A stretch of 64,000 bases of DNA, from contig CALRAM010000002.1 in assembly GCA_943353165.1 (NCBI GenBank), positions 1,716-65,715 on the forward strand, written 5' to 3'. Below, piece by piece: positions 2,500 through 51,929 of the stretch. Source of the stretch: an uncultured Candidatus Saccharimonas sp. (GTDB lineage Bacteria > Patescibacteriota > Saccharimonadia > Saccharimonadales > OMJO01). Under the pieces are notes generated by a model, which worked only from the letters and a program-made list of their open reading frames with translations, was not told the origin of the DNA and made no database searches. Position 1 is the stretch's first letter. Each line of letters starts with the position of its first letter. Position numbers and translations under genes: made by a program.

Positions 2500-4713
2500 A
2501 TGACTACCAAGATGAAGTACAGTCGGCTTTTCACTGGGGTGGTGATGGCAATGTTACTTTTGGTGCCAGCAAGCGCGTCTGCCGTCGCTGTTTGTAGCCT
2601 ATGTATTGTAGAGGTTCAGTCTCAGGGCATAAATAGTGCGGCCGAAGACTATATTGTCGTAGCCAATAACACTAGTGTTCCATATGACACCACAGGCGTT
2701 GCATTAAAATATTACACTGCAGCCGGCAACAATACGACGTCTAGGAACATAGCATTGTCCGGCAGCTTGCCCGCTAGGTCGTCAATGGTTTTTGTTTCTG
2801 CAGGTTTGGCGACTGCCAATCCGACTGCTAGGCAGTTTCCCTCTGGTCTGGCGCTTTACGACGCCGGAGGTTCGTTAGAGCTCGTAACAGGCAGCACTAT
2901 AATGGATAGGGTCAGTTGGGGAGTAGTTACGGATCCTTTGCGAAGTGCAACACCTGGGCCTGTCCACAGCAAAGGTGCTTCGCTGACCAGAAAACACAGC
3001 GCTCTAGGGTTTTTGGATTCGGACAATAGTAGTGCCGATTTTGAGGCTGTCTGGCACGCATGTAGCGGATTGTCTATAAACGAAATTCAACCCTTTGCCG
3101 TAGGCCTGGAAGGCGAAGATATTTTGCCAGGACTGGAGTTGGTAAAATATAGCAACGCAGTCCTAGACATTGACTGCCCCATTCTGATAAACGGGGTCAA
3201 ATATTTTGTGGCAGCCGGAGATTTGCAGGCGACACCTTCAATAATTATCATAAATAATGTGCTGGACAATCTGGGCGACGTTTTGGACTTGTCTTTGTTG
3301 GTTGATGCTCCGAACACTGTGCAGTTAATCTCTGGTAGTTTTTACGGCGATCTGGCCTTGCCTATAACTAGCACTCTGACTTTGCAGCCTGTTTTGTCCG
3401 ACGGTCAAACCTATGCGTTTTTTGTCAGCAGCTGGAAGCCCACCTATAGCCCAACGCTCGGTTCGAGCAACAAATTATCTACTGTTTTGGTGTTGCCTAC
3501 AGACCCACCACCTACTGTGCCACCAGACGCATGTACAGATGTAAAGCTCAACGAAATGTTGCCAAATCCTACTGGAGATGACACTGGAAACGAGTGGATT
3601 GAGCTGATAGGTCTGACTGACAAGCCTAGCTTTTTAGGTGACTGCGGGGTACAGGTAATTACACCTACGACCACAACTACATACGCTTTTGGGCCAGACC
3701 AGTTCATAGACGCCAATGGTTTGGATTCTTTTACAGAGTTCAGTGACGGTGTAAGTATGCGAACATTAACTCTGAGAAACAGCGATACAAATACAATTAG
3801 CTTTGGGCGCATAGAGAACGATCAGTTTGTGCCGATACAAACAGTGCAGTACAAAGACGCACCAGAAGGTCAGAGCTGGGCGCGTTTTTCTGATGGCTGG
3901 AAGTGGGTCGCCAACCCTACCAAAAACTTGTCAAATACTACCCAGACAACAGAGGATGAAGATCCGTCGCCTACAGAGTTCCCTGCGCCACCACCACCAG
4001 TATCTCCGCCGCCTACAGTACTGCCAGCTTCACCGATAAGTATCGTGGAGTTGTTGCCCAACCCAGCGTCGCCCCAAACAGACGAAGCTGACGAGTATTT
4101 GGAGTTGTTTAATCCAACAAATGTAGCCGTAGATTTGACAGGCTACAAAGTTCAGACAGGCTACACATATAGTTATAGTGTGACTCTGCAAAACCAGACC
4201 ATACCAGCCAATGGCTATCTGGTTATAAAGAGTGGAAACACCAGTCTGTCTCTGGCGAATGCCGGTGGTCAGGCTCATTTGCTAGACCCTGCAGGAAATA
4301 TTATTAGCACGACAGATGTCTACACCGATGCACCGGAAGGGCAGGCGTGGGCTCTGGTGGACGACGTCTGGAAGTGGACAGGTTCTCCGACCGTTGGCGC
4401 TACTAACATTTATAGCGATCCTGTATTAACGGCAGTCACTACCAAAGCATCCAAGGCCACAAAAGCTACAAAAGCAGTAAAGGCTGTGTCTACCAAAAAA
4501 CCTGCTACTGCTGGTAATGTTAGCGAACAAAATGGCAGGGAGTTACCGAATGAACCAGCGCCATTGCACTTTGGGGTGCTTGCAGGAGTTGGTGCTCTTG
4601 CAGTAGGATATGCAGTATATGAGTACAGAAAAGACTTGGCAAACAGAATCTACCAGTTCAGACGCTACCGAAAAGCTCGCCGGGCAACTAGGTCACAATC
4701 TACGGGGCGGTGA
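2500..4713 (+). CDS. Surface-anchored lamin-tail-domain (LTD) repeat protein
   Basis: Has an N-terminal signal/TM segment (LFTGVVMAMLLLVPASASA). Repeated LTD signatures are present (NEMLPNPTGDDTGNEWIELIG, VELLPNPASPQTDEADEYLELFNPT). Pro-rich linkers, a KA-rich stalk and a C-terminal TM plus basic tail follow. The track ORF begins at 2473, but the ATG at 2500 has a GGGGA SD 7 nt upstream. Confidence 0.8.
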   Translation: MTTKMKYSRLFTGVVMAMLLLVPASASAVAVCSLCIVEVQSQGINSAAEDYIVVANNTSVPYDTTGVALKYYTAAGNNTTSRNIALSGSLPARSSMVFVSAGLATANPTARQFPSGLALYDAGGSLELVTGSTIMDRVSWGVVTDPLRSATPGPVHSKGASLTRKHSALGFLDSDNSSADFEAVWHACSGLSINEIQPFAVGLEGEDILPGLELVKYSNAVLDIDCPILINGVKYFVAAGDLQATPSIIIINNVLDNLGDVLDLSLLVDAPNTVQLISGSFYGDLALPITSTLTLQPVLSDGQTYAFFVSSWKPTYSPTLGSSNKLSTVLVLPTDPPPTVPPDACTDVKLNEMLPNPTGDDTGNEWIELIGLTDKPSFLGDCGVQVITPTTTTTYAFGPDQFIDANGLDSFTEFSDGVSMRTLTLRNSDTNTISFGRIENDQFVPIQTVQYKDAPEGQSWARFSDGWKWVANPTKNLSNTTQTTEDEDPSPTEFPAPPPPVSPPPTVLPASPISIVELLPNPASPQTDEADEYLELFNPTNVAVDLTGYKVQTGYTYSYSVTLQNQTIPANGYLVIKSGNTSLSLANAGGQAHLLDPAGNIISTTDVYTDAPEGQAWALVDDVWKWTGSPTVGATNIYSDPVLTAVTTKASKATKATKAVKAVSTKKPATAGNVSEQNGRELPNEPAPLHFGVLAGVGALAVGYAVYEYRKDLANRIYQFRRYRKARRATRSQSTGR

Positions 4714-8653: not shown

Positions 8654-8660
8654 ATGAAAC

Positions 8661-8685
8661 AGTCCATCATTCGATGGGCTTTTTC
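8661..8685 (+). terminator. Rho-independent terminator after tRNA-Pro
   Basis: Hairpin AGTCCATC-ATTC-GATGGGCT followed by TTTTC. Confidence 0.6.
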
Positions 8686-8751
8686 ATTTCAGATTTTATC
8701 GACAGATGTTTGAGGGCTAGAAAACGGGAAAGTCCTATATAATAAAACAAT

Positions 8752-16901: not shown

Positions 16902-16993
16902 GCTTTGATTGTATAGAATTTTTGTACTTTTTCATAGTTGGCACAGCTTAAATAGTAGATACAAAAACCCCAGACTAGCTGGGGCTCTTGTAT

Positions 16994-17011
16994 TGGTGCG
17001 CCCGGACGGAT
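16994..17011 (-). repeat. 18-nt duplicate of the 3' end of tRNA-Arg(TCG)
   Basis: TGGTGCGCCCGGACGGAT is identical at 16994-17011 and at 17161-17178 (the 3' end of the tRNA on the minus strand). The copy lacks a T-loop and a 5' acceptor partner. Confidence 0.85.
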
Positions 17012-17120
17012 ATCGCCACCTTCGTGGCTCCTCCACTCAGCCATGCTCGGTGCAAGCACCTGTGCGTGACTTCGCTACGCCGAACCTGCGGCTCAAATCC
17101 GTGCTCGAAAGTTCGAGCTG

Positions 17121-17147
17121 AAATAAAAACCACTCTCGAAGGAGTGG
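17121..17147 (-). terminator. Rho-independent terminator after tRNA-Arg(TCG)
   Basis: Minus-sense hairpin CCACTC-CTTCGA-GAGTGG followed by TTTTTATTT. Confidence 0.6.
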
Positions 17148-17160
17148 CTTACATTTCACC

Positions 17161-17237
17161 TGGTGCGCCCGGACGGATTCGAACCGCCGACACCTGGTTC
17201 CGAAGACCAGTGCTCTAATCCGCTGAGCTACGGGCGC
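17161..17237 (-). tRNA. tRNA-Arg (anticodon TCG), CCA encoded
   Basis: The reverse complement folds with acceptor GCGCCCG/CGGGCGC, anticodon stem CTGGT/ACCAG with loop CTTCGGA, T-arm GGCGG TTCGAAT CCGTC. Confidence 0.9.
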
Positions 17238-18269: not shown

Positions 18270-19418
18270 CTACCAAACCCGAGTTGGTACGGTCTTGTAA
18301 GTAGTGTTGCCAATACCAAGCTGACCGATATAATTATCTCCCCAACACCACAGAGTCCCATCGGTCTTTGTAGCGCAGGTTTTATCATTCCCCGCGTAAA
18401 CCGATGCAACTCCCGCGATGTATAGCTGCGTTGGTACGTATTTGTTGGTGGTAGTGCCTATACCAAGCTGAGCCCAATTATTTCCTCCCCAACACCACAG
18501 AGTCCCATCGGTCTTTGTAGCGCATGTATGGTAAAGCCCAGCCGATACAGACGATACTCCAGCTATATATAACTGCGTAGGTACGGTCTTGCCAGTAGTG
18601 TTGCCAATGCCAAGCTTACCGGTGCTATTATACCCCCAACACCATAGCGACCCATCAGTCTTTGTAGCGCAGGTATGGTCATCGCCCGCCGACACCGACG
18701 CTACTCCCGCGATATTTACCCGTTTTGGTACATTCGAGGCAGTGGTGTTGCCTATACCAAGTTGTCCATAAGCATTATACCCCCAACACCATAGCGTCCC
18801 ATCGGTCTTTGTAGCGCAGGTATGGCCATATCCCGCCGACACCGAGGCCACTCCCGCGATGTATAGCTGCGTTGGTACGTTTTTGCTAATAGTGCTGTTA
18901 ATGCCAAGCTGACCCTTGTCATTATACCCCCAACACCATAGCGTCCCATCGGTCTTTCTAGCGCAGGTATGGCTATCCCCCGCCGACACCGATGTTACTC
19001 CCGCGATGTATAGCTGGGTCGGTACTCTCTTGCCAGTAGTACTACCAATGCCAAGCTGACCCTTGTCATTATACCCCCAACACCATAGCGACCCATCGGT
19101 CTTTCTAGCGCAGGTATGGCTATCCCCCGCCGACACCGATGTTACTCCCGCGATATTCACCTTCGTTGGTACGGTCTTGTCAGTGGTGCTGCCAATACCA
19201 AGCTGCCCAGAATCATTTTGCCCCCAACACCACAGCGTCTTATCGGACTTTATCTCGCAGGTATGGGCATACCCCCCCGTGGCGGCGTTGCTCCTGGTCA
19301 GCAGGTAAGTACCTATGCCTGCTACGGCAGATACTACTACCACTGCTAGCAGCATCTTTAGTGGAGATGTCTTTCTAAAACTTAGTTTCTTTGTTGATTT
19401 CTTGTTCTTGGTTGCCAT
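18270..19418 (-). CDS. Secreted/anchored RCC1-repeat (seven-bladed beta-propeller) protein
   Basis: Signal anchor MATKNKKSTKKLSFRKTSPLKMLLAVVVVSAVAGIGTYLL, followed by seven units of about 50 aa (HTCA.KTDG.LWCWG.N..GQLGIG.T). The ATG at 19418 has a GGGGAG SD. The track ORF starts at TTG 19436. Confidence 0.85.
   Translation of the reverse strand: MATKNKKSTKKLSFRKTSPLKMLLAVVVVSAVAGIGTYLLTRSNAATGGYAHTCEIKSDKTLWCWGQNDSGQLGIGSTTDKTVPTKVNIAGVTSVSAGDSHTCARKTDGSLWCWGYNDKGQLGIGSTTGKRVPTQLYIAGVTSVSAGDSHTCARKTDGTLWCWGYNDKGQLGINSTISKNVPTQLYIAGVASVSAGYGHTCATKTDGTLWCWGYNAYGQLGIGNTTASNVPKRVNIAGVASVSAGDDHTCATKTDGSLWCWGYNSTGKLGIGNTTGKTVPTQLYIAGVSSVSAGLYHTCATKTDGTLWCWGGNNWAQLGIGTTTNKYVPTQLYIAGVASVYAGNDKTCATKTDGTLWCWGDNYIGQLGIGNTTYKTVPTRVW
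18290..19270 (-). repeat. Intragenic tandem repeats (about 7 x ~150 nt) encoding RCC1 blades
   Basis: CCATCGGTCTTTGTAGCGCAGGT-like strings recur about every 147-150 nt across the gene. Confidence 0.8.
19279..19418 (-). repeat. Shared signal-anchor module, copy 1 (5' end of the RCC1 gene)
   Basis: These 140 nt align colinearly with 20214-20353, with about 13 mismatches clustered at the extreme 5' end. Confidence 0.85.
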
Positions 19419-20353
19419 TACCAGTTTACTCCCCAAATTCCATTGGCACCTGTTGCTTGAACTGGTCCTATAGGTACGTCAGTCGGTTCCCCGAATATAA
19501 CTCTGACTGATCCGTTAGCGTTGTAGTATGAATTACCTCTTTTTACGCCAACATAGTTAGTATCTGTACCTCCAGGTATTTTTGTAACAATAGGTGTGTC
19601 TCCAATGTTGCCAAATCTTTTAGTGGTAACGGTTCCAATTGCATTATTGGTGAGGTTGGTCAGGTAGAATGTAGCATTGTTTGGCCTGTAAACTCCTATG
19701 CTAACTTTGCCATCGCCGTTCCAGTCTCCTACTAAGGGCTTATCTCCGAGATTACCAAATTTGTATGTTTTAGTGCCCGACGTTCCGACACTCAGATAGA
19801 ATGTTTGATTGCTTGGCCTGTAAACTCCAAATTGTGAACTGCCGGAGTTGTCCCAGTCACCGCAAAGTGGTGTATCTCCAGGATTACCGTAAAATACCTC
19901 CCACCCTGATAGGCTGCCTGCGCTGCTGGGCCTTAATGTCCATTTTCCACTGTAAAATGTCCACACATCATAATCAACATCCCAACCCTGCTTATTTGCG
20001 CCGCCAAGAACTTTTTTAGGACAGACAACGATTTGGTTTGAAGATTTGGGTATTGTATAGGTTGTTGAAACTGTCGCATTAAAATAATTAGGCATTCCAT
20101 CAGCTCCAAACCCACCAGTCAGATAATTTCCCCCATCATTGGAATTAAATATTTGACCAGTAGATGGTCTGTATATAGTTAGCGCTCTTGGAATAGGTAT
20201 AGGCCCGCCTATTGTGGCGGCGTTGCTCCTGGTCAGCAGATAAGTACCGATACCTGCTACAGCAGATACTACTACCACTGCTAGCAGCATCTTTAGGGGT
20301 GATGTCTTTCTAAAACTTAGTTTCTTTGTTGATTTCTTTGATTTCTGTGCCAT
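19418..20353 (-). CDS. Secreted/anchored FG-GAP/VCBS-like repeat protein
   Basis: Same N-terminal module (MAQKSKKSTKKLSFRKTSPLKMLLAVVVVSAVAGIGTYLLTRSNAAT) followed by GDWDNSGSSQFGVYRPSNQTFYL and GDWNGDGKVSIGVYRPNNATFYL repeats. Its TAA stop overlaps the ATG of the RCC1 gene by 1 nt (TAATG). Confidence 0.8.
   Translation of the reverse strand: MAQKSKKSTKKLSFRKTSPLKMLLAVVVVSAVAGIGTYLLTRSNAATIGGPIPIPRALTIYRPSTGQIFNSNDGGNYLTGGFGADGMPNYFNATVSTTYTIPKSSNQIVVCPKKVLGGANKQGWDVDYDVWTFYSGKWTLRPSSAGSLSGWEVFYGNPGDTPLCGDWDNSGSSQFGVYRPSNQTFYLSVGTSGTKTYKFGNLGDKPLVGDWNGDGKVSIGVYRPNNATFYLTNLTNNAIGTVTTKRFGNIGDTPIVTKIPGGTDTNYVGVKRGNSYYNANGSVRVIFGEPTDVPIGPVQATGANGIWGVNW
20214..20353 (-). repeat. Shared signal-anchor module, copy 2 (5' end of the FG-GAP-like gene)
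   Basis: See 19279-19418. Confidence 0.85.
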
Positions 20354-20588
20354 TTGTATTGTTTTCCTTTGTATTAGATAACTATTCATTATCAACTATA
20401 ATCACATAACAAAATAAAGCAATAGCGAAATGCAAAACAGGGTGGGGCAGGGAACGGAGATATTGGGCGCGGTCCAGTATTCGGACTGTTGACACAATTT
20501 GGCGGTGTAGTGTACTTTTTATAGTACAATCATATGGACAAGATAGAGTAAGGTAACTTTTTATATTTTAAAAGCAAAGGGGTAAATT

Positions 20589-21500: not shown

Positions 21501-22097
21501 TCAGGGCTTCTTTGACTTTAAAGCCAGCCAGTCCGGGACTTCAATAAACCTAATTTCTTCCCAACTATCAATCTCTTCCTCTGTGACATCATAAATTGCT
21601 TGGTACGCAGTCTCCACGCTACCGTGGAGAGCGTCTGAAAAGTCTAGGCCAAGCTTTATTGCTACGCTTTTTAACTCTTTTTCATTTTTTGCTTCAATTT
21701 CTACAAAACTAGGTATCCAGGGCCAAGTGTCTAGTTCTATTTCCGTGCTTCCAAGCTTCCAGCTTTCGCGCTTTGTTTCTTGAAATGATTTTGATTCCAT
21801 ACCGATTGATTCAAGAAAGCTACAGGCCGCATCAAAATTTTCTACAACTACATTTACTTCTTTAGTACCGTGAACAGTTCTATCATTTAGCTGCTTGTAG
21901 CTTAGAGTGATTTTATCTCCTTCGTTTCGAACCCTAACCCAACCCCCGATTTTATATAGCCTTTGATCTGGGAAGTCATAAACCTTACGGGTCATGAGCC
22001 TTTCTTCGGCAATAAGTTTTGCACCAATACTCAGTAGTAGCTTTCGCATTGACACTAAATTTATATCAAGCCATTTTGCTTCAATTTCAGTCTGCAT
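21501..22097 (-). CDS. CYTH-domain protein (triphosphate tunnel metalloenzyme / class IV adenylate cyclase-like), paralog 1
   Basis: 198 aa. N-terminal EIEAKW (ExExK) motif, with later RVR, E.E and EIE strands typical of CYTH. Confidence 0.75.
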   Translation of the reverse strand: MQTEIEAKWLDINLVSMRKLLLSIGAKLIAEERLMTRKVYDFPDQRLYKIGGWVRVRNEGDKITLSYKQLNDRTVHGTKEVNVVVENFDAACSFLESIGMESKSFQETKRESWKLGSTEIELDTWPWIPSFVEIEAKNEKELKSVAIKLGLDFSDALHGSVETAYQAIYDVTEEEIDSWEEIRFIEVPDWLALKSKKP

Positions 22098-22104
22098 TTG
22101 TCTA

Positions 22105-22219
22105 AGTATATCAAAAAACAGAGGTAAATTACTTCTGTCTATGCATCCTTCTACAGGCTCAGGCTTAATAAGCGGATTGGAGGTTTATCCGGCTGTCAGA
22201 ATGACGGCAGGGGCCAGCG
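22105..22219 (-). promoter_or_regulatory. Conserved 115-nt leader upstream of CYTH paralog 1 (terminator-like hairpin plus U-tract)
   Basis: Differs from 22784-22898 at only 3 positions. Minus-sense ACAGAAGT-AATTT-ACCTCTGT followed by TTTTTT lies 15-20 nt before the start codon. Confidence 0.6.
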
Positions 22220-22234
22220 GGGTTGCTATCGCAA

Positions 22235-22783
22235 CTATTTTTCATTCTCCAAAAACTTGTACATAAGCGTGTCATAACCTTCGTGGACCCGTTCTTCTTG
22301 CCCAACTCCGAGCTCCAATAATATACTCCAGAGTTCTGATTGAATAGCATCTACATCTGCTTCGTCATCTGCCAGCTTCTCTACCTCAATAAAAGAGCCT
22401 AGATTATCAACCTCATCTAAGCATATTTCAAGCTTGTTATATTTTGCAGTCCGTCTTTTTTTACAAATCCTTACGCCTAATGTATAGCCAACTCGTTCAA
22501 GCATATCTGACACATCTTTAGCATTTTCAATTATGGTTTCTCGTTCATGGTTATCTCGTGACCTAGTTGAAGCTGTGTACTTCATTGTTAAGATAATTTT
22601 ATTTCCTTGTTTACGGATTCGAAAGATATTCCAATTTGGGTCGTTCTTAGATAATTTAGTTTCATATGTAGTGTCATCTTGAACGGTGGGTTCGCCAAAT
22701 GAAATACCTAGTTCGCTGGCTTTATCAAGTAAATCTTTGATGTTATTAACTCGCGCCTTAACCTCTATTTCTCGCATTACCAT
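22235..22783 (-). CDS. CYTH-domain protein (CyaB-like class IV adenylate cyclase / triphosphatase), paralog 2
   Basis: 182 aa. MREIEVKARV (ExExK), FRIRKQGNKIILTMK, ICLDEVDNLGSFIEVE. Strongly diverged from paralog 1. Confidence 0.75.
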   Translation of the reverse strand: MVMREIEVKARVNNIKDLLDKASELGISFGEPTVQDDTTYETKLSKNDPNWNIFRIRKQGNKIILTMKYTASTRSRDNHERETIIENAKDVSDMLERVGYTLGVRICKKRRTAKYNKLEICLDEVDNLGSFIEVEKLADDEADVDAIQSELWSILLELGVGQEERVHEGYDTLMYKFLENEK

Positions 22784-22898
22784 AGTATATCAAAAAACAG
22801 AGGTAAATTACTTCTGTCTAAGCATCCTTCTACAGGCTCAGGCTTAATAAGCGGATTGGAGGTTTATCTGGCTGTCAGAAAGACGGCAGGGGCCAGCG
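22784..22898 (-). promoter_or_regulatory. Conserved 115-nt leader upstream of CYTH paralog 2
   Basis: Second copy of the leader. It abuts the ATG at 22783, and no minus-strand gene lies upstream for its hairpin to terminate. Confidence 0.6.
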
Positions 22899-23408: not shown

Positions 23409-23424
23409 ACCGTAGTACACATCT

Positions 23425-23446
23425 TTGGAGGGCCAGCGGGGACTCG
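23425..23446 (-). repeat. 22-nt copy of the tRNA-Lys 3' end (att-like)
   Basis: TTGGAGGGCCAGCGGGGACTCG is identical at 23425, 24331 and 24523 (the last within and adjacent to the intact tRNA-Lys). Confidence 0.9.
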
Positions 23447-23621
23447 ACCTACCTTTGGCAGGCCCGTCGCAACATCTTTGCAAAACCAGTTTGCAAGAGT
23501 TGACTCCCTTGCGACCCGCCACAGGCGGCTCTCACCCGATCACCCTTTTGGCGTGTCAGGAATTCAAATCCAATTAGCTCAACCAATGAAAAAGCCCTAT
23601 CTTGCGATAGGACTGTTTCAT
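23447..23621 (-). repeat. tRNA-Lys-downstream module, decayed copy B
   Basis: Colinear homology to 24353-24523 (for example TTGCGACCCGCCACAGGCGG...TTTTGGCGTGTCAGGAATTCAAATCC versus TTGCGCCCCGCCACAGGCGGGG...TTTTTGGCGTGTCCGGAATTCGAGTCC). Confidence 0.75.
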
Positions 23622-23695
23622 TGGAGGTCCACGGTGGACGAAGTAGCAACTATACTTAACCGAAGTGCTAGACTGAAAGCATGAAGAATGTATTT
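23622..23695 (-). pseudogene. Decayed tRNA-Lys pseudogene
   Basis: TGGAGGTCCACGGTGGACGAAG...CTTAA...GTGCTAGAC aligns block by block with the intact tRNA-Lys (TGGAGGGCCAGCGGGGACTCGAA...CTTAA...GTGCTCTAAC), but the stems no longer pair. It overlaps the start of the 23681 ORF. Confidence 0.5.
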
Positions 23696-24277
23696 GCTGT
23701 AATTGCAGCTATTCTGGCTATTGCAGGTAATTTACCTTATATACGAGATGCGTTTACGAAGCGGGTTAAACCCCATCCTTTTACTTGGCTCGTGTGGACA
23801 ATTGTTTCAGCAATTGTATTATTCGGTCAAATAGTGGAAGGCGCAGGAATCGGAGCGTTACCTACGGCAGTAGCGGGGGCTTTTACTACAATAATATTCC
23901 TATTTTCAATTCAGTATGGCTTCAAATATGTTAAGAAATCAGATAAATACTTTTTAGCTGCTGCCTTACTCGGGATTATCCCTTGGCTCATATTTGATAA
24001 CGCTACTGTTTCAGTAATCATTGCTGTCGCAATCGATTTGATAGCATTTGTACCTACGTTACGTAAAACATACTTTCATCCAGAAACAGAAACACCAATT
24101 CTTTATGGCTCAAATGTATTGAGGCATATATTAACACTGTTTTCTTTGCAGGCATATAATATCGCCACTACACTACATTCAATCTCCATGATCATTACTA
24201 ACTCAACCATGGTCGTACTAACCACAAGTAAAAAAGCACACATAAAAGCACATAAAAACAATACAACTCTCAAATAA
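23681..24277 (+). CDS. Hypothetical integral membrane protein (about 6 TM)
   Basis: 198 aa and hydrophobic throughout. Lies between the two tRNA-Lys modules. Family not recognised. Confidence 0.55.
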   Translation: MKNVFAVIAAILAIAGNLPYIRDAFTKRVKPHPFTWLVWTIVSAIVLFGQIVEGAGIGALPTAVAGAFTTIIFLFSIQYGFKYVKKSDKYFLAAALLGIIPWLIFDNATVSVIIAVAIDLIAFVPTLRKTYFHPETETPILYGSNVLRHILTLFSLQAYNIATTLHSISMIITNSTMVVLTTSKKAHIKAHKNNTTLK

Positions 24278-24330
24278 TTAATTTTTAAGCATACTCCTGC
24301 GCCAAGGCTTCGGAAGCACAGGTAAGCTTA

Positions 24331-24352
24331 TTGGAGGGCCAGCGGGGACTCG
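24331..24352 (-). repeat. 22-nt copy of the tRNA-Lys 3' end (att-like)
   Basis: Identical to 23425-23446 and 24523-24544. Identity breaks inside the T-loop. Confidence 0.9.
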
Positions 24353-24523
24353 CCCACATTCTGCGGGCCCAGAACTTTCATACTTGCAACAAGTGGCAAA
24401 TCTGAAAGATTCTCTTGCGCCCCGCCACAGGCGGGGCTCACCCCGGACACCTTTTTGGCGTGTCCGGAATTCGAGTCCAATGCTGCCAACGAAAAGACCC
24501 CAGGCAAGCTGAGGTCATTTCAT
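24353..24523 (-). repeat. tRNA-Lys-downstream module, copy A (two strong hairpins)
   Basis: Contains CCCCGCC-ACA-GGCGGGG and CCGGACAC-CTTTTTGGC-GTGTCCGG hairpins. Bracketed by the tRNA-Lys 3' end and its 22-nt duplicate. Confidence 0.75.
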
Positions 24524-24600
24524 TGGAGGGCCAGCGGGGACTCGAACCCCGGACACCCTGCTTAAGAGGCAGGTGCTCTAACCAGCTGAGCTACTGGCCC
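24524..24600 (-). tRNA. tRNA-Lys (anticodon CTT), CCA encoded
   Basis: Reverse complement: acceptor GGGCCAG/CTGGCCC, anticodon stem CCTGC/GCAGG with loop CTCTTAA, T-arm CGGGG TTCGAGT CCCCG. Confidence 0.9.
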
Positions 24601-24711
24601 TTAAATTGCGATTTGTTTTTGTAAGGTGCGGTGTGTTTCTGGGGCTATTTTTATTTAGCTGTTCAGAGCACAGGTGTTATTTATATTCTACTCGGCATAG
24701 GATGCCTCGGG

Positions 24712-24729
24712 CAGCTGAGCTACTGGCCC
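24712..24729 (-). repeat. 18-nt copy of the tRNA-Lys 5' end
   Basis: CAGCTGAGCTACTGGCCC is identical to 24583-24600. It sits upstream of the intact gene and has no matching 3' half. Confidence 0.8.
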
Positions 24730-40450: not shown

Positions 40451-40525
40451 GGTCCCATCTTCTAACGGTTAGGAATTCGGGTTTTCATCCCGGCAATAGG
40501 AGTTCGATTCTCCTTGGGATCACCA
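40451..40525 (+). tRNA. tRNA-Glu (anticodon TTC), CCA encoded
   Basis: Acceptor GGTCCCA/TGGGATC, anticodon stem TCGGG/CCCGG with loop TTTTCAT, T-arm AGGAG TTCGATT CTCCT. Confidence 0.85.
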
Positions 40526-40534
40526 ATCTAAGAG

Positions 40535-40555
40535 CCCCACGCAAGTGGGGTTTTT
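40535..40555 (+). terminator. Rho-independent terminator after tRNA-Glu
   Basis: CCCCAC-GCAA-GTGGGG followed by TTTTT. Confidence 0.75.
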
Positions 40556-40580
40556 AGATTGGTAGTTGCTCGAAGAGCAA

Positions 40581-40630
40581 CGAACTCCTATTGCCGGATC
40601 GACCATAGTCGAAGGCAATAGAGTTCGATA
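40581..40630 (+). repeat. Hairpin repeat unit 1 built from tRNA-Glu 3'-half sequence
   Basis: GAACTCCTATTGCC...GGCAATAGAGTTC forms a long stem. The right arm copies tRNA-Glu 40493-40507 (GGCAATAGGAGTTCG) and the left arm is its inverted copy. Confidence 0.75.
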
Positions 40631-40720
40631 ATCAAAGGCACGCGCAGAAGTTTACTTCGAGCATGACTGCAGATTATATGCGCGAAGGCGCTATATTCTC
40701 CTTGGTAGTCGCGTGGCGAT

Positions 40721-51498: not shown

Positions 51499-51522
51499 GC
51501 ACCTCTTGCGAGATGCGTTTTT
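51499..51522 (+). terminator. Rho-independent terminator after the MFS gene
   Basis: GCACCTC-TTGC-GAGATGC (one mismatch) followed by GTTTTT. It abuts the 3' end of the convergent tmRNA gene. Confidence 0.55.
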
Positions 51523-51929
51523 GGAGGAGCTGGCGGGTACTGCCCCCGCGTCCATCGGTTTACAATGTTAGTCTTCTACAAGCATAGGTCGTTTAATATA
51601 AAGACAATATAACCGTTAAACGACCAAAAAGTTATACGTCTTTGGTTCAAAAGTCTTAGCAAATGCATAGAACCAAGTGCATTTGAGCGATCAGATATAT
51701 GACATGCGTTTGAACTCTATCTGATGTCGAGTTCTGCACGGCTCTAGGGTTTTACGCTAAAGCTGGTGCAAAGCTAGGTACTGTAAACAGACTAGCTAAG
51801 CGTTGAGTAAATGATTTTGCATTTATTCGGTTTGTCTATTTAAATCTTACAAAAAAGTAGGACTTTCGCTGACAAGCGGCTTGCGAACTAACTTGTAAAG
51901 GTCCAATGTCGAGCTTAAAATTCAGCCCC
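51522..51929 (-). ncRNA. ssrA: tmRNA (SsrA)
   Basis: The minus strand starts GGGGCTGAATTTTAAGCTCGACATTGG and ends GGACGCGGGGGCAGTACCCGCCAGCTCCTCCA. The acceptor GGGGCTG/CAGCTCC carries the G3:U70 Ala identity pair. Candidate tag ORF at 51820-51752: GCA AAA ... GCT TTA GCG TAA = AKSFTQRLASLFTVPSFAPALA. Confidence 0.8.

Follow-up and report, generated by a model that had tools for sequence, protein, structure and literature searches.

Small structured elements housed in partial tRNA copies downstream of tRNA-Lys and other tRNA genes, mostly in Saccharibacteria

The stretch of 64,000 nucleotides (nt) analyzed here (the window; contig CALRAM010000002.1 of an uncultured Candidatus Saccharimonas sp., GenBank assembly GCA_943353165.1) carries on its minus strand a gene for tRNA-Lys(CTT) with an encoded CCA end (24524-24600; called by ARAGORN, Rfam tRNA score of 70.2 bits), and the DNA downstream of this gene contains two copies of a small structured element, here called A and B. 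A first-pass annotation of the locus had drawn attention to a 22-mer, TTGGAGGGCCAGCGGGGACTCG, and we confirmed its three exact copies at 23425, 24331, and 24523 (0 in 100 dinucleotide-preserving shuffles). As had also been proposed, the 22-mer is the 3' end of tRNA-Lys on the minus strand, comprising nt 56 to 76 (C56 to A76, with the CCA encoded) plus one A. The segment of about 170 nt between the tRNA and the second 22-mer does fold well beyond its shuffles (-97 kcal/mol, z = -6.3), and its GC content is 57-60% compared to about 40% in the surroundings. Both hairpins previously named in this segment are real: CCCCGCC/GGCGGGG is hairpin P1 of a structured module, and CCGGACAC/GTGTCCGG is an antisense tRNA copy paired with a sense tRNA copy. 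An open reading frame (ORF) of 198 amino acids (aa) is likewise present between the two elements. The first-pass annotation took the repeated tRNA end as a footprint of integrase-mediated insertion; we find instead that the 22-mers are the tails of two copies of the element and not scars of phage integration.

Read along the tRNA-Lys strand, each unit has the same order: an intrinsic-terminator-like hairpin (T1), a degenerate antisense tRNA copy that runs from nt 76 back to about nt 45 (the 5' arm), a cap loop, a sense copy of nt ~44-54 (S'), the module, and a tail that is an exact copy of nt 55/56-76. In element A, the terminator scan places T1 at 24489-24523 (minus strand), directly after the CCA of the tRNA gene, where it reads ATGAAA, a stem, and TTTTCGTT. 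The 5' arm of A (24460-24488, minus; UGGCAGCAUUGGACUCGAAUUCCGGACAC) is a degenerate antisense copy of tRNA-Lys nt ~72 to 44 and contains inverted repeat I3, 19 nt that are 89% complementary to the tRNA T arm. The cap loop, GCCAAAAAG, was read from the sequence as 9 nt at 24451-24459 (minus), and S' (24440-24450, minus; direct repeat D11 and junction mapping) copies nt 44-54 and ends at T54. The module of A, 87 nt at 24353-24439 (minus), was defined by alignment, RNAalifold, and covariation and scores 98.9 bits with the covariance model; its hairpins on the same strand are P1 (24416-24440, using T54), P2 (24371-24413), and P3 (24352-24368, using C56). The tail of A (24331-24352, minus), an exact copy of tRNA nt 56-76 plus one A, is the second 22-mer. 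Element B, also on the minus strand, consists of a terminator-like T1 hairpin (23586-23621; terminator scan and inverted repeat I1) with a stem sequence unlike that of A, a 5' part (23534-23585) made up of an antisense arm (23553-23585), a cap loop, and an S' ending at T54 (23534), a module (23448-23533; nhmmer and covariance model, 103.3 bits) with hairpins P1 (23510-23534), P2 (23466-23507), and P3 (23447-23463), and a 23-nt tail (23425-23447) that repeats tRNA nt 55-76 exactly, with one A added, and includes the first 22-mer.

Element B had been described as a decayed colinear copy of the segment in A. The colinear copy is there (23425-23621, 72% identical), whereas the decay is not. A and B are two conserved subtypes, 2a and 2b, given that module B nearly matches an intact element beside tRNA-Lys(TTT) at locus L040 (L-numbers are labels of the compared loci, which are genome stretches, strain contigs, and metagenome loci): the two differ by one base in P2-P3, as compared by eye, and the differences in P1 are compensatory. 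Module A groups with the elements of L097, L071, and L117. With A and B in distinct conserved subtypes, segmental duplication with decay does not account for the pair, and a covariance-model search of the window returned no type-2 copy beyond these two. A decayed tRNA-Lys pseudogene had been placed at 23622-23695, but the resemblance is confined to its last 18 nt (23622-23639, minus; GTCCACCGTGGACCTCCA, 14/18 in the alignment, equaled by 72 of 2,000 shuffles). The 5' part of the interval is not significantly similar to tRNA-Lys, with 324 of 2,000 shuffles scoring as well, and neither ARAGORN nor Rfam calls a tRNA there. The position of this remnant is one that, in element arrays, belongs to the end of a tRNA or to the tail of the preceding unit. 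The 18-nt copy of the tRNA-Lys 5' end at 24712-24729 (minus; direct repeat D7), in contrast, proved exact. It lies 111 nt upstream of tRNA-Lys, just downstream of a sigma-70-like promoter match (24788-24761), and may be the relic of a 5'-side duplication resembling the pseudo-tRNA context described below for other loci; no module lies between it and the tRNA-Lys gene.

The element architecture is present at three of the seven tRNAs of the window (Lys, Arg, and Glu), and the latter two carry a different module, type 1. The element after tRNA-Arg(TCG) (17161-17237) occupies 16994-17160 on the minus strand and is composed of T1, an antisense T-arm copy, GGTTCG, the type-1 module, and an exact 18-nt tail (16994-17011), followed by a terminator of its own at ~16960-16993. 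The element after tRNA-Glu(TTC) (40451-40525) occupies 40526-40712 on the plus strand and has T1, an exact 17-nt antisense T-arm copy at ~40581, the type-1 module, and a decayed tail (11 nt exact, 40695). A hairpin, ATTGCCGGATCGAC...GTCGAAGGCAAT, is repeated in the tRNA-Glu spacer at ~40590 and ~40740. The tRNA-Pro gene and the Gly-Arg-His cluster are followed by a terminator only, without an element. The terminators after tRNAs share a symmetric form, with an A-rich run, a GC stem, and a U-rich run (for example, ATGAAA...TTTTCAT), and the hairpin reaches the base after the CCA (8654-8695, 17119-17160, 23586-23621, 24489-24523, and 40526-40562). At element-bearing loci, the antisense arm carries this terminator palindrome further outward. 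The idea that the antisense arm by itself is a palindromic extension of the terminator was rejected, as the module-less scores fell within shuffle noise.

A type-1 search motif common to the Arg and Glu cores (CACGCNCAG, 10-16 nt, CGAGCATGRCTG) matched at least 118 genome stretches in a species-representative genome set. Among the matches listed, about 85 are labeled Saccharibacteria, Saccharimonadales, or Saccharimonadia, 7 belong to other bacteria of the candidate phyla radiation (CPR) or to unlabeled bacteria, one is a real element in a metagenome-assembled genome (MAG) labeled Limnocylindria, and the remainder are GC-rich chance matches. From this distribution, the source of the window is very probably a freshwater Saccharibacterium. 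Again among the matches listed, 66 type-1 loci have a tRNA within ~230 nt upstream on the same strand, and the tRNAs beside type-1 elements have identities covering at least 15 amino acids. The tail is an exact copy, of 12 nt or longer, of the 3' end of the element's own upstream tRNA through CCA in 33 type-1 loci, with 18-19 nt being the commonest exact length. The antisense arm is found in 45/45 intact elements, where it runs from a UGG right after the T1 U-tract to about nt 46 with 70-85% identity; a T1-like hairpin follows 41 of the 45 tRNAs carrying an intact element, and in 27 of the 45 elements the tail CCA is directly followed by a further terminator belonging to the element itself.

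Type-2 modules were found at ten further places among the genome loci via nhmmer and the covariance model, and a scan for the end of subtype 2b returned 74 metagenome loci with 97 module copies. The 22 nt after the 2b module are the last 22 nt of the upstream tRNA in 25 of 42 cases (Val, Gln, Arg, Glu, Ala, and Ser). Within the loci examined, at least 13 of the 71 tRNAs not selected for the type-1 motif carry units, and of 78 tRNAs with the strict type-1 motif downstream, 28 have no exact 12-nt copy of their 3' end. The spacer between tRNA-Glu and the pyruvate kinase gene holds elements in 6/6 genomes compared (the window and five others; pyruvate kinase identity of 64-71%). Three loci come from MAGs with a label other than Saccharibacteria: a complete type-1 element with tRNA-Ala and an 18-nt exact tail in L027 (DATHJH010000039.1, labeled Candidatus Limnocylindria), a complete type-1 element with tRNA-Arg and a 16-nt exact tail in L029 (labeled Kaiserbacteria), and a type-1 core with no upstream tRNA detected in L011 (labeled Kaiserbacteria). 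The elements in such MAGs could reflect mis-binning, mislabeling, or a wider distribution. In the Rfam 15 search, only tRNAs and one transfer-messenger RNA (tmRNA) reached the gathering score, and the Lys and Arg elements had no credible match at E <= 10. Full-text literature searches and term look-ups in two structured-RNA surveys (PMC11109978 and PMC8632094) did not turn up a description of elements of this type. The family is apparently undescribed and lies mostly in Saccharibacteria.

The fold of the module is supported by covariation. In an alignment of 11 type-2 sequences analyzed with RNAalifold, both-sided changes were observed at 26 of 33 pairs, and 91.6% of cells were paired compared to 67% in shuffled and 29-46% in slid controls. 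For the 97 copies (80 distinct), in which P3 was fixed by the search pattern and P1 and P2 were free, both-sided changes were observed at 29 of 33 pairs, with 96.6% of cells paired versus 76% after shuffling. The type-1 core was fixed by its search pattern, leaving only the P2 hairpin as an unbiased test, and this hairpin has four covarying pairs. The cells with G.U outnumber those with A.C (29 versus 6 in type 2 and 8 versus 0 in the type-1 core), and one G.U in the type-2 P3 is almost invariant; the fold therefore belongs to the tRNA-sense strand. A strand-specific fold is also compatible with single-stranded DNA. U54 is paired at the base of P1 and U55 (or C56) at the base of P3. The type-1 loops are GCGAAGC and CTTG, both of which form stable DNA mini-hairpins. 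As an alternative to integration, the first-pass annotation had offered a structured segment linked to the tRNA, and this came nearer the mark, with a core that covaries strongly on the tRNA-sense strand.

The junctions of the module are precise. Among the type-2 elements mapped, T54 is the last base of the left flank and T55 or C56 the first of the tail, with no duplicated base at the junction; where the T-stem has a run of five G (G5), the left flank (S') is one G short. Element A has a type-2 module of 87 nt, and the 2b copies from metagenomes have modules of 85-87 nt. In type 1, S' extends through G57 and the tail starts from nt 58-59. Type-2 modules also occur in a second context, in which the module occupies the T-loop of a pseudo-tRNA (nt 1-54) that has a promoter before it; TCGAATCC and a short stretch antisense to the T-loop come next, and behind them lie another promoter and an intact copy of the same tRNA (L117 at 3238-3500, L149, L152, L155, L180, L184, L209, and L214). 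In L117, one module is nested inside another, after GGGT, and L180 has a type-2-like module within the D-loop. The tails of five type-2b elements (L167, L170, L181, L183, and L210) contain extra GC-rich hairpin-like inserts at ~nt 65/66, which is the junction of the T stem and the acceptor stem, and these may be a third kind of small insert.

Units form arrays of two to four after single tRNAs, with types 1 and 2 mixed (L068, L071, and L116), and in one genome the tRNA-Arg and tRNA-Ser modules are nearly identical while their arms are different. The tails form a continuum from perfect to unrecognizable, and 20 of 66 type-1 tails have as many mismatches as noise. Where the 18-nt tail of a type-1 element is perfect (0/18 mismatches; 20 elements), the antisense arm is only 76% identical, and the two tRNA-derived parts therefore differ in constraint, although selection against long perfect inverted repeats could be an alternative reason for the degenerate arm. 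The arm mismatches prefer nt 58, 64-65, 68, and 72 and lean to G.U-compatible changes (60/593 versus 33/543 positions). Downstream 3'-end copies without a module were found only twice (L091 and L100), and neither is clearly a complete fold-back pad. Empty orthologous sites are seen for tRNA-Pro of the window compared to L028 and L071 and for tRNA-Lys in L145. No polymorphism of the tRNA-Arg element was seen among the seven strain contigs that span it (ten returned).

The first-pass annotation had supposed a history of change at the Lys locus, and presence/absence polymorphism was indeed found, given that one strain contig carries an extra cassette and a relative syntenic at FolD has a bare tRNA-Lys. 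The strain contig (L004; ERZ27263765 k141_667347, 1438-1809) has 372 additional nt at the CCA end of the tail of B, corresponding to window ~23421-23431, bounded by imperfect repeats of ~11 nt (...CCTCCAAA(G/T)AT) and containing a small ORF for a candidate membrane protein of ~66 aa; the tail of B in this contig has two mismatches. In L145, where synteny with FolD is kept, tRNA-Lys(CTT) lacks both the terminator and the element. The membrane protein gene of 198 aa between A and B (23681-24277, plus strand) has no Pfam hit and 1,603 homologues, many of which are 65-83% identical. It is a conserved Saccharimonadales gene with differing neighbors in different genomes and is not cargo.

A search for an enzyme linked to the elements was negative. 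By Pfam, none of the 50 ORFs covering the window encodes an integrase, transposase, or reverse transcriptase, and the domains found were housekeeping only (RecA, RNase Y, SHMT, MurB, glycolysis enzymes, tRNA synthetases, and ATP synthase). All-against-all clustering of 1,035 ORFs within 2.5 kb of the 118 loci revealed no recurrent protein neighbor; the largest clusters were spurious ORFs of GC-rich chance loci, ORFs antisense to tRNAs, and ordinary syntenic genes. No gene for TnpB, IscB, or a CRISPR effector was present among the window ORFs or recurrent beside the 118 loci, and no Y1/HUH transposase (TnpA or RAYT) was found beside the related loci. A scan of viral contigs, made with the type-1 core pattern only, gave three chance matches in coding DNA, and we rejected a phage origin, as that scan yielded chance matches alone.

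The interpretation that we favor, with about even confidence, is that the module is a small, non-autonomous insertion element with a specificity for the T-loops of tRNAs, housed in fold-back partial tRNA copies. In such a scenario, selection would maintain the module fold on the tRNA-sense strand, either as RNA or as single-stranded DNA, and the module would be moved by a trans-acting factor encoded elsewhere in the genome. Copies would persist only in redundant partial tRNA copies beside the parent gene, each insertion would have a 22-mer as its right flank of tRNA origin, and the 22-mers would recur through the stacking of units and not through integrase crossovers. The anatomy, family membership, covariation, folding strand, precise junction, arrays, and lack of a linked protein were observed directly, whereas we infer the mobility, the trans-acting factor, the origin of the fold-back tRNA copies, and the choice between RNA and DNA as the active form. 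The closest parallels are the palindrome-associated transposable elements (PATEs) derived from IS200/IS605 and the REPIN-RAYT system, which are similarly short (~60-90 nt), non-autonomous, and protein-less, with any enzyme acting in trans. Like the present elements, both have hairpins at both ends, strand-specific structure, several subfamilies, nested copies, and arrays, and both insert precisely beside a short motif (here GGT| or TTCG|) with no target duplication or terminal inverted repeats. Unlike those systems, there is no Y1/HUH transposase beside the loci described here, the insertion target is within the T-loop of a tRNA, a fold-back partial copy of the adjacent tRNA surrounds each module, and the hairpins begin directly at the junction, with U54 and U55 among their paired bases, and are not 10-19 nt off. 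Archaeal noncanonical tRNA introns and split tRNA genes also involve an insertion in the T-loop of tRNA-derived sequence; the present setting is bacterial, however, and the host sequence is a partial or pseudo tRNA and not a functional gene.

Several observations weigh against this interpretation. The moving enzyme is hypothetical, given that the window yielded no gene for a transposase, integrase, or reverse transcriptase and none recurred beside the 118 loci. Among the loci compared, no empty/filled pair was seen for the module alone, i.e., a fold-back pad without its module, and no known transposition chemistry explains the fold-back arms. The invariance of the type-1 core and of P3 in the 97-copy alignment is no evidence for the fold, given that the search patterns fixed both. 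The perfect tails beside 76% arms suggest selection on the tail and not a neutral flank, and the tail of module B is perfect over 23 nt at a distance of 1.1 kb from the tRNA. The occupied tRNA-Glu to pyruvate kinase spacer in all six genomes is compatible with a conserved function, and the terminator that follows the CCA in 27/45 intact elements resembles that of an RNA gene.

A second and less likely possibility is that the elements specify a functional RNA tied to the cognate tRNA. Read-through of T1 would give an RNA of ~150-190 nt in which the antisense arm pairs with the tRNA-identical tail, so that the arm-tail helix mimics the helix of the acceptor and T stems, the module replaces the T-loop, and the 3' end is CCA. 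Such an RNA could have a guide or decoy role or supply a spare 3' end. The order of antisense guide, catalytic or protein-binding module, and exact 3' exon is also that of trans-splicing ribozymes made by engineering and of external guide sequences for RNase P. The elements resemble engineered trans-splicing group I ribozymes and external guide sequences in having an antisense guide, a core, and an exact 3' exon that ends in NCCA; they differ in that no catalytic activity is known, the core of 55-87 nt has no match to a ribozyme family, and the CCA is predicted to be paired with UGG. The stack of acceptor and T stems reproduced by the arm-tail helix, that of a specific tRNA, recalls known natural tRNA-like RNAs such as tmRNA, YrlA, and mascRNA, which unlike these elements are not re-specified for each neighboring tRNA. 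The strong covariation and the preference of G.U pairs for the tRNA-sense strand fit an RNA product, as do the GC-rich composition within a genome of ~40% GC, the lean of arm mismatches to G.U-compatible changes, and tails that are exact through CCA beside far less exact arms, even at the distance of module B. The terminators behind the tails and the tRNA-Glu spacer, which stays filled across deep divergence, point the same way, and a functional RNA would not need a linked protein. However, a terminator precedes the element, which lacks its own promoter, given that T1 abuts the 5' arm. In addition, many tRNAs and entire orthologous sites are without an element, a strict type-1 motif can stand without an exact 3'-end copy (28/78 tRNAs) or with a tail at noise (20/66), the arrays, nesting, and pseudo-tRNA contexts resemble selfish accumulation, and the ends of a single-stranded-DNA transposon would show strand-specific structure equally well.

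A more specific proposal, that the elements are natural RNA devices acting on the cognate tRNA or its gene, strikes us as improbable. It would combine an antisense guide to the tRNA 3' half, a small catalytic or protein-recruiting module exactly at the T-loop, and a spare, exact 3' end through CCA, in a layout like that of the engineered 'RNA repair' ribozymes that splice in trans. Were this the case, the device could replace or mend damaged tRNA 3' ends, for example after the action of a nuclease toxin on the T-loop or acceptor stem, or it could direct RNA-guided insertion specific for the T-loop, and either action would constitute a new RNA-programmed system, re-specified for each tRNA, in the ultra-small CPR bacteria. 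With the omegaRNA of TnpB and the delocalized CRISPR RNA (crRNA) with which type V-K CRISPR-associated transposons home to tRNA genes, the elements share a last scaffold hairpin directly followed by 18-22 nt identical to the 3' end of a tRNA gene, and the universally conserved T-loop 5' of the matched site in the real gene could serve as a transposon- or protospacer-adjacent motif. Unlike in those systems, no TnpB, IscB, or Cas12k lies near the loci, the would-be guide is paired to an internal antisense arm, and no match to an omegaRNA in Rfam was obtained.

The history put forward in the first-pass annotation, that of repeated tyrosine-integrase integration or accretion at the tRNA-Lys 3' end followed by duplication and decay, with the 22-mers as att cores, now appears very unlikely. 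It has in its favor that each unit lies between direct repeats of a tRNA 3' end (the three 22-mers here and the tails of 33 and 25 further elements), that the cassette in L004, with its small ORF and ~11-nt repeat, sits exactly at the CCA end of a tail, that a related genome has an empty tRNA-Lys site, and that neighboring genes vary among strains (an ORF of 114 versus 154 aa and the copies of a CYTH-domain gene). In tRNA-gene islands such as the Prochlorococcus tycheposons and the accretion of streptococcal cis-mobilizable and integrative and conjugative elements (CIME/ICE) at tRNA-Lys, there are likewise direct repeats of tRNA 3' ends, tandem stacking downstream of the tRNA, and small cassettes that are present or absent among strains. 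In those islands, however, an integrase is at work, whereas no integrase domain occurs in the 64 kb and none recurs beside the 118 and 74 related loci, and viral contigs scanned with the type-1 core gave chance matches only. The repeat-bounded units are only ~170-190 nt long and mostly free of cargo. One conserved structured module recurs at tRNAs of at least 15 identities and would not be shared by different attP arm regions, and an antisense tRNA copy and a module that splits the T-loop are foreign to att sites. The repeat begins inside the T-loop because the module is inserted there, and A and B are no duplicate pair.

The possibility that we rank lowest among these, and which we also consider very unlikely, is a folded single-stranded-DNA recombination site like integron attC or the attP of CTX-phi, in which the arms mimic the double-stranded 3' half of the tRNA gene and a host recombinase exchanges cassettes. 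The elements share with such sites an imperfect fold-back imitating a double-stranded target, with mismatches at preferred positions (nt 58, 64-65, 68, and 72), strand-specific structure, and occurrence in arrays; the GCGAAGC and CTTG loops of type 1 and the small gene and cassette between or after the units at the Lys locus are also in keeping with it. Unlike in attC and the CTX-phi attP, the sequence is that of the neighboring tRNA, the module interrupts the site and breaks up the putative crossover region, no IntI or Xer-type gene is linked, most units are back to back and free of cassettes, and the gene lying between A and B belongs to the conserved core. A retroviral-type primer-binding site was rejected, as the insertion point simply dictates the 18-nt length and the corresponding length in type 2 is 21-22 nt, and a T-box riboswitch, likeness of the type-1 core to group II intron domain V, a casposon-like long target duplication, and an IS110 bridge RNA were each rejected for want of the defining feature.

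Saccharibacteria have genomes of ~1 Mb with little spare DNA, and despite such compactness these units accompany a sizeable share of their tRNA genes. As a mobile element, the module would be of a new kind, protein-less, aimed at the tRNA T-loop, which holds the few most conserved bases in biology, and always in a fold-back copy of its target, and it would point to a trans-acting enzyme common to a whole bacterial class. If the elements instead give a functional RNA, it would be a reprogrammable tRNA-specific RNA with a bearing on tRNA repair or surveillance and on RNA-guided tools. Either way, partial tRNA copies in CPR genomes should not be taken as prophage scars, and about 200 aligned examples make the question testable.

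Some further features of the window lie apart from the elements. The tmRNA gene (51522-51929, minus strand; Rfam, 51.6 bits) is directly followed by a terminator, with neither a 3'-end copy nor an element downstream of it. Tandem CYTH-domain genes (21501-22097 and 22235-22783) are preceded by 115-nt repeats that are 97% identical (22105-22219 and 22784-22898), and this block and the neighboring ORF of 114 or 154 aa differ between strains. A 12-nt match resembling the tRNA-Lys 3' end (22211-22222) was set aside as probably due to chance, as it falls inside the 115-nt repeat upstream of a CYTH gene. A protein of 388 aa (18270-19436, minus strand) is composed almost wholly of RCC1 repeats (seven), which is unusual for so small a genome, and the ORF next to it (19418-20395) has no Pfam match.

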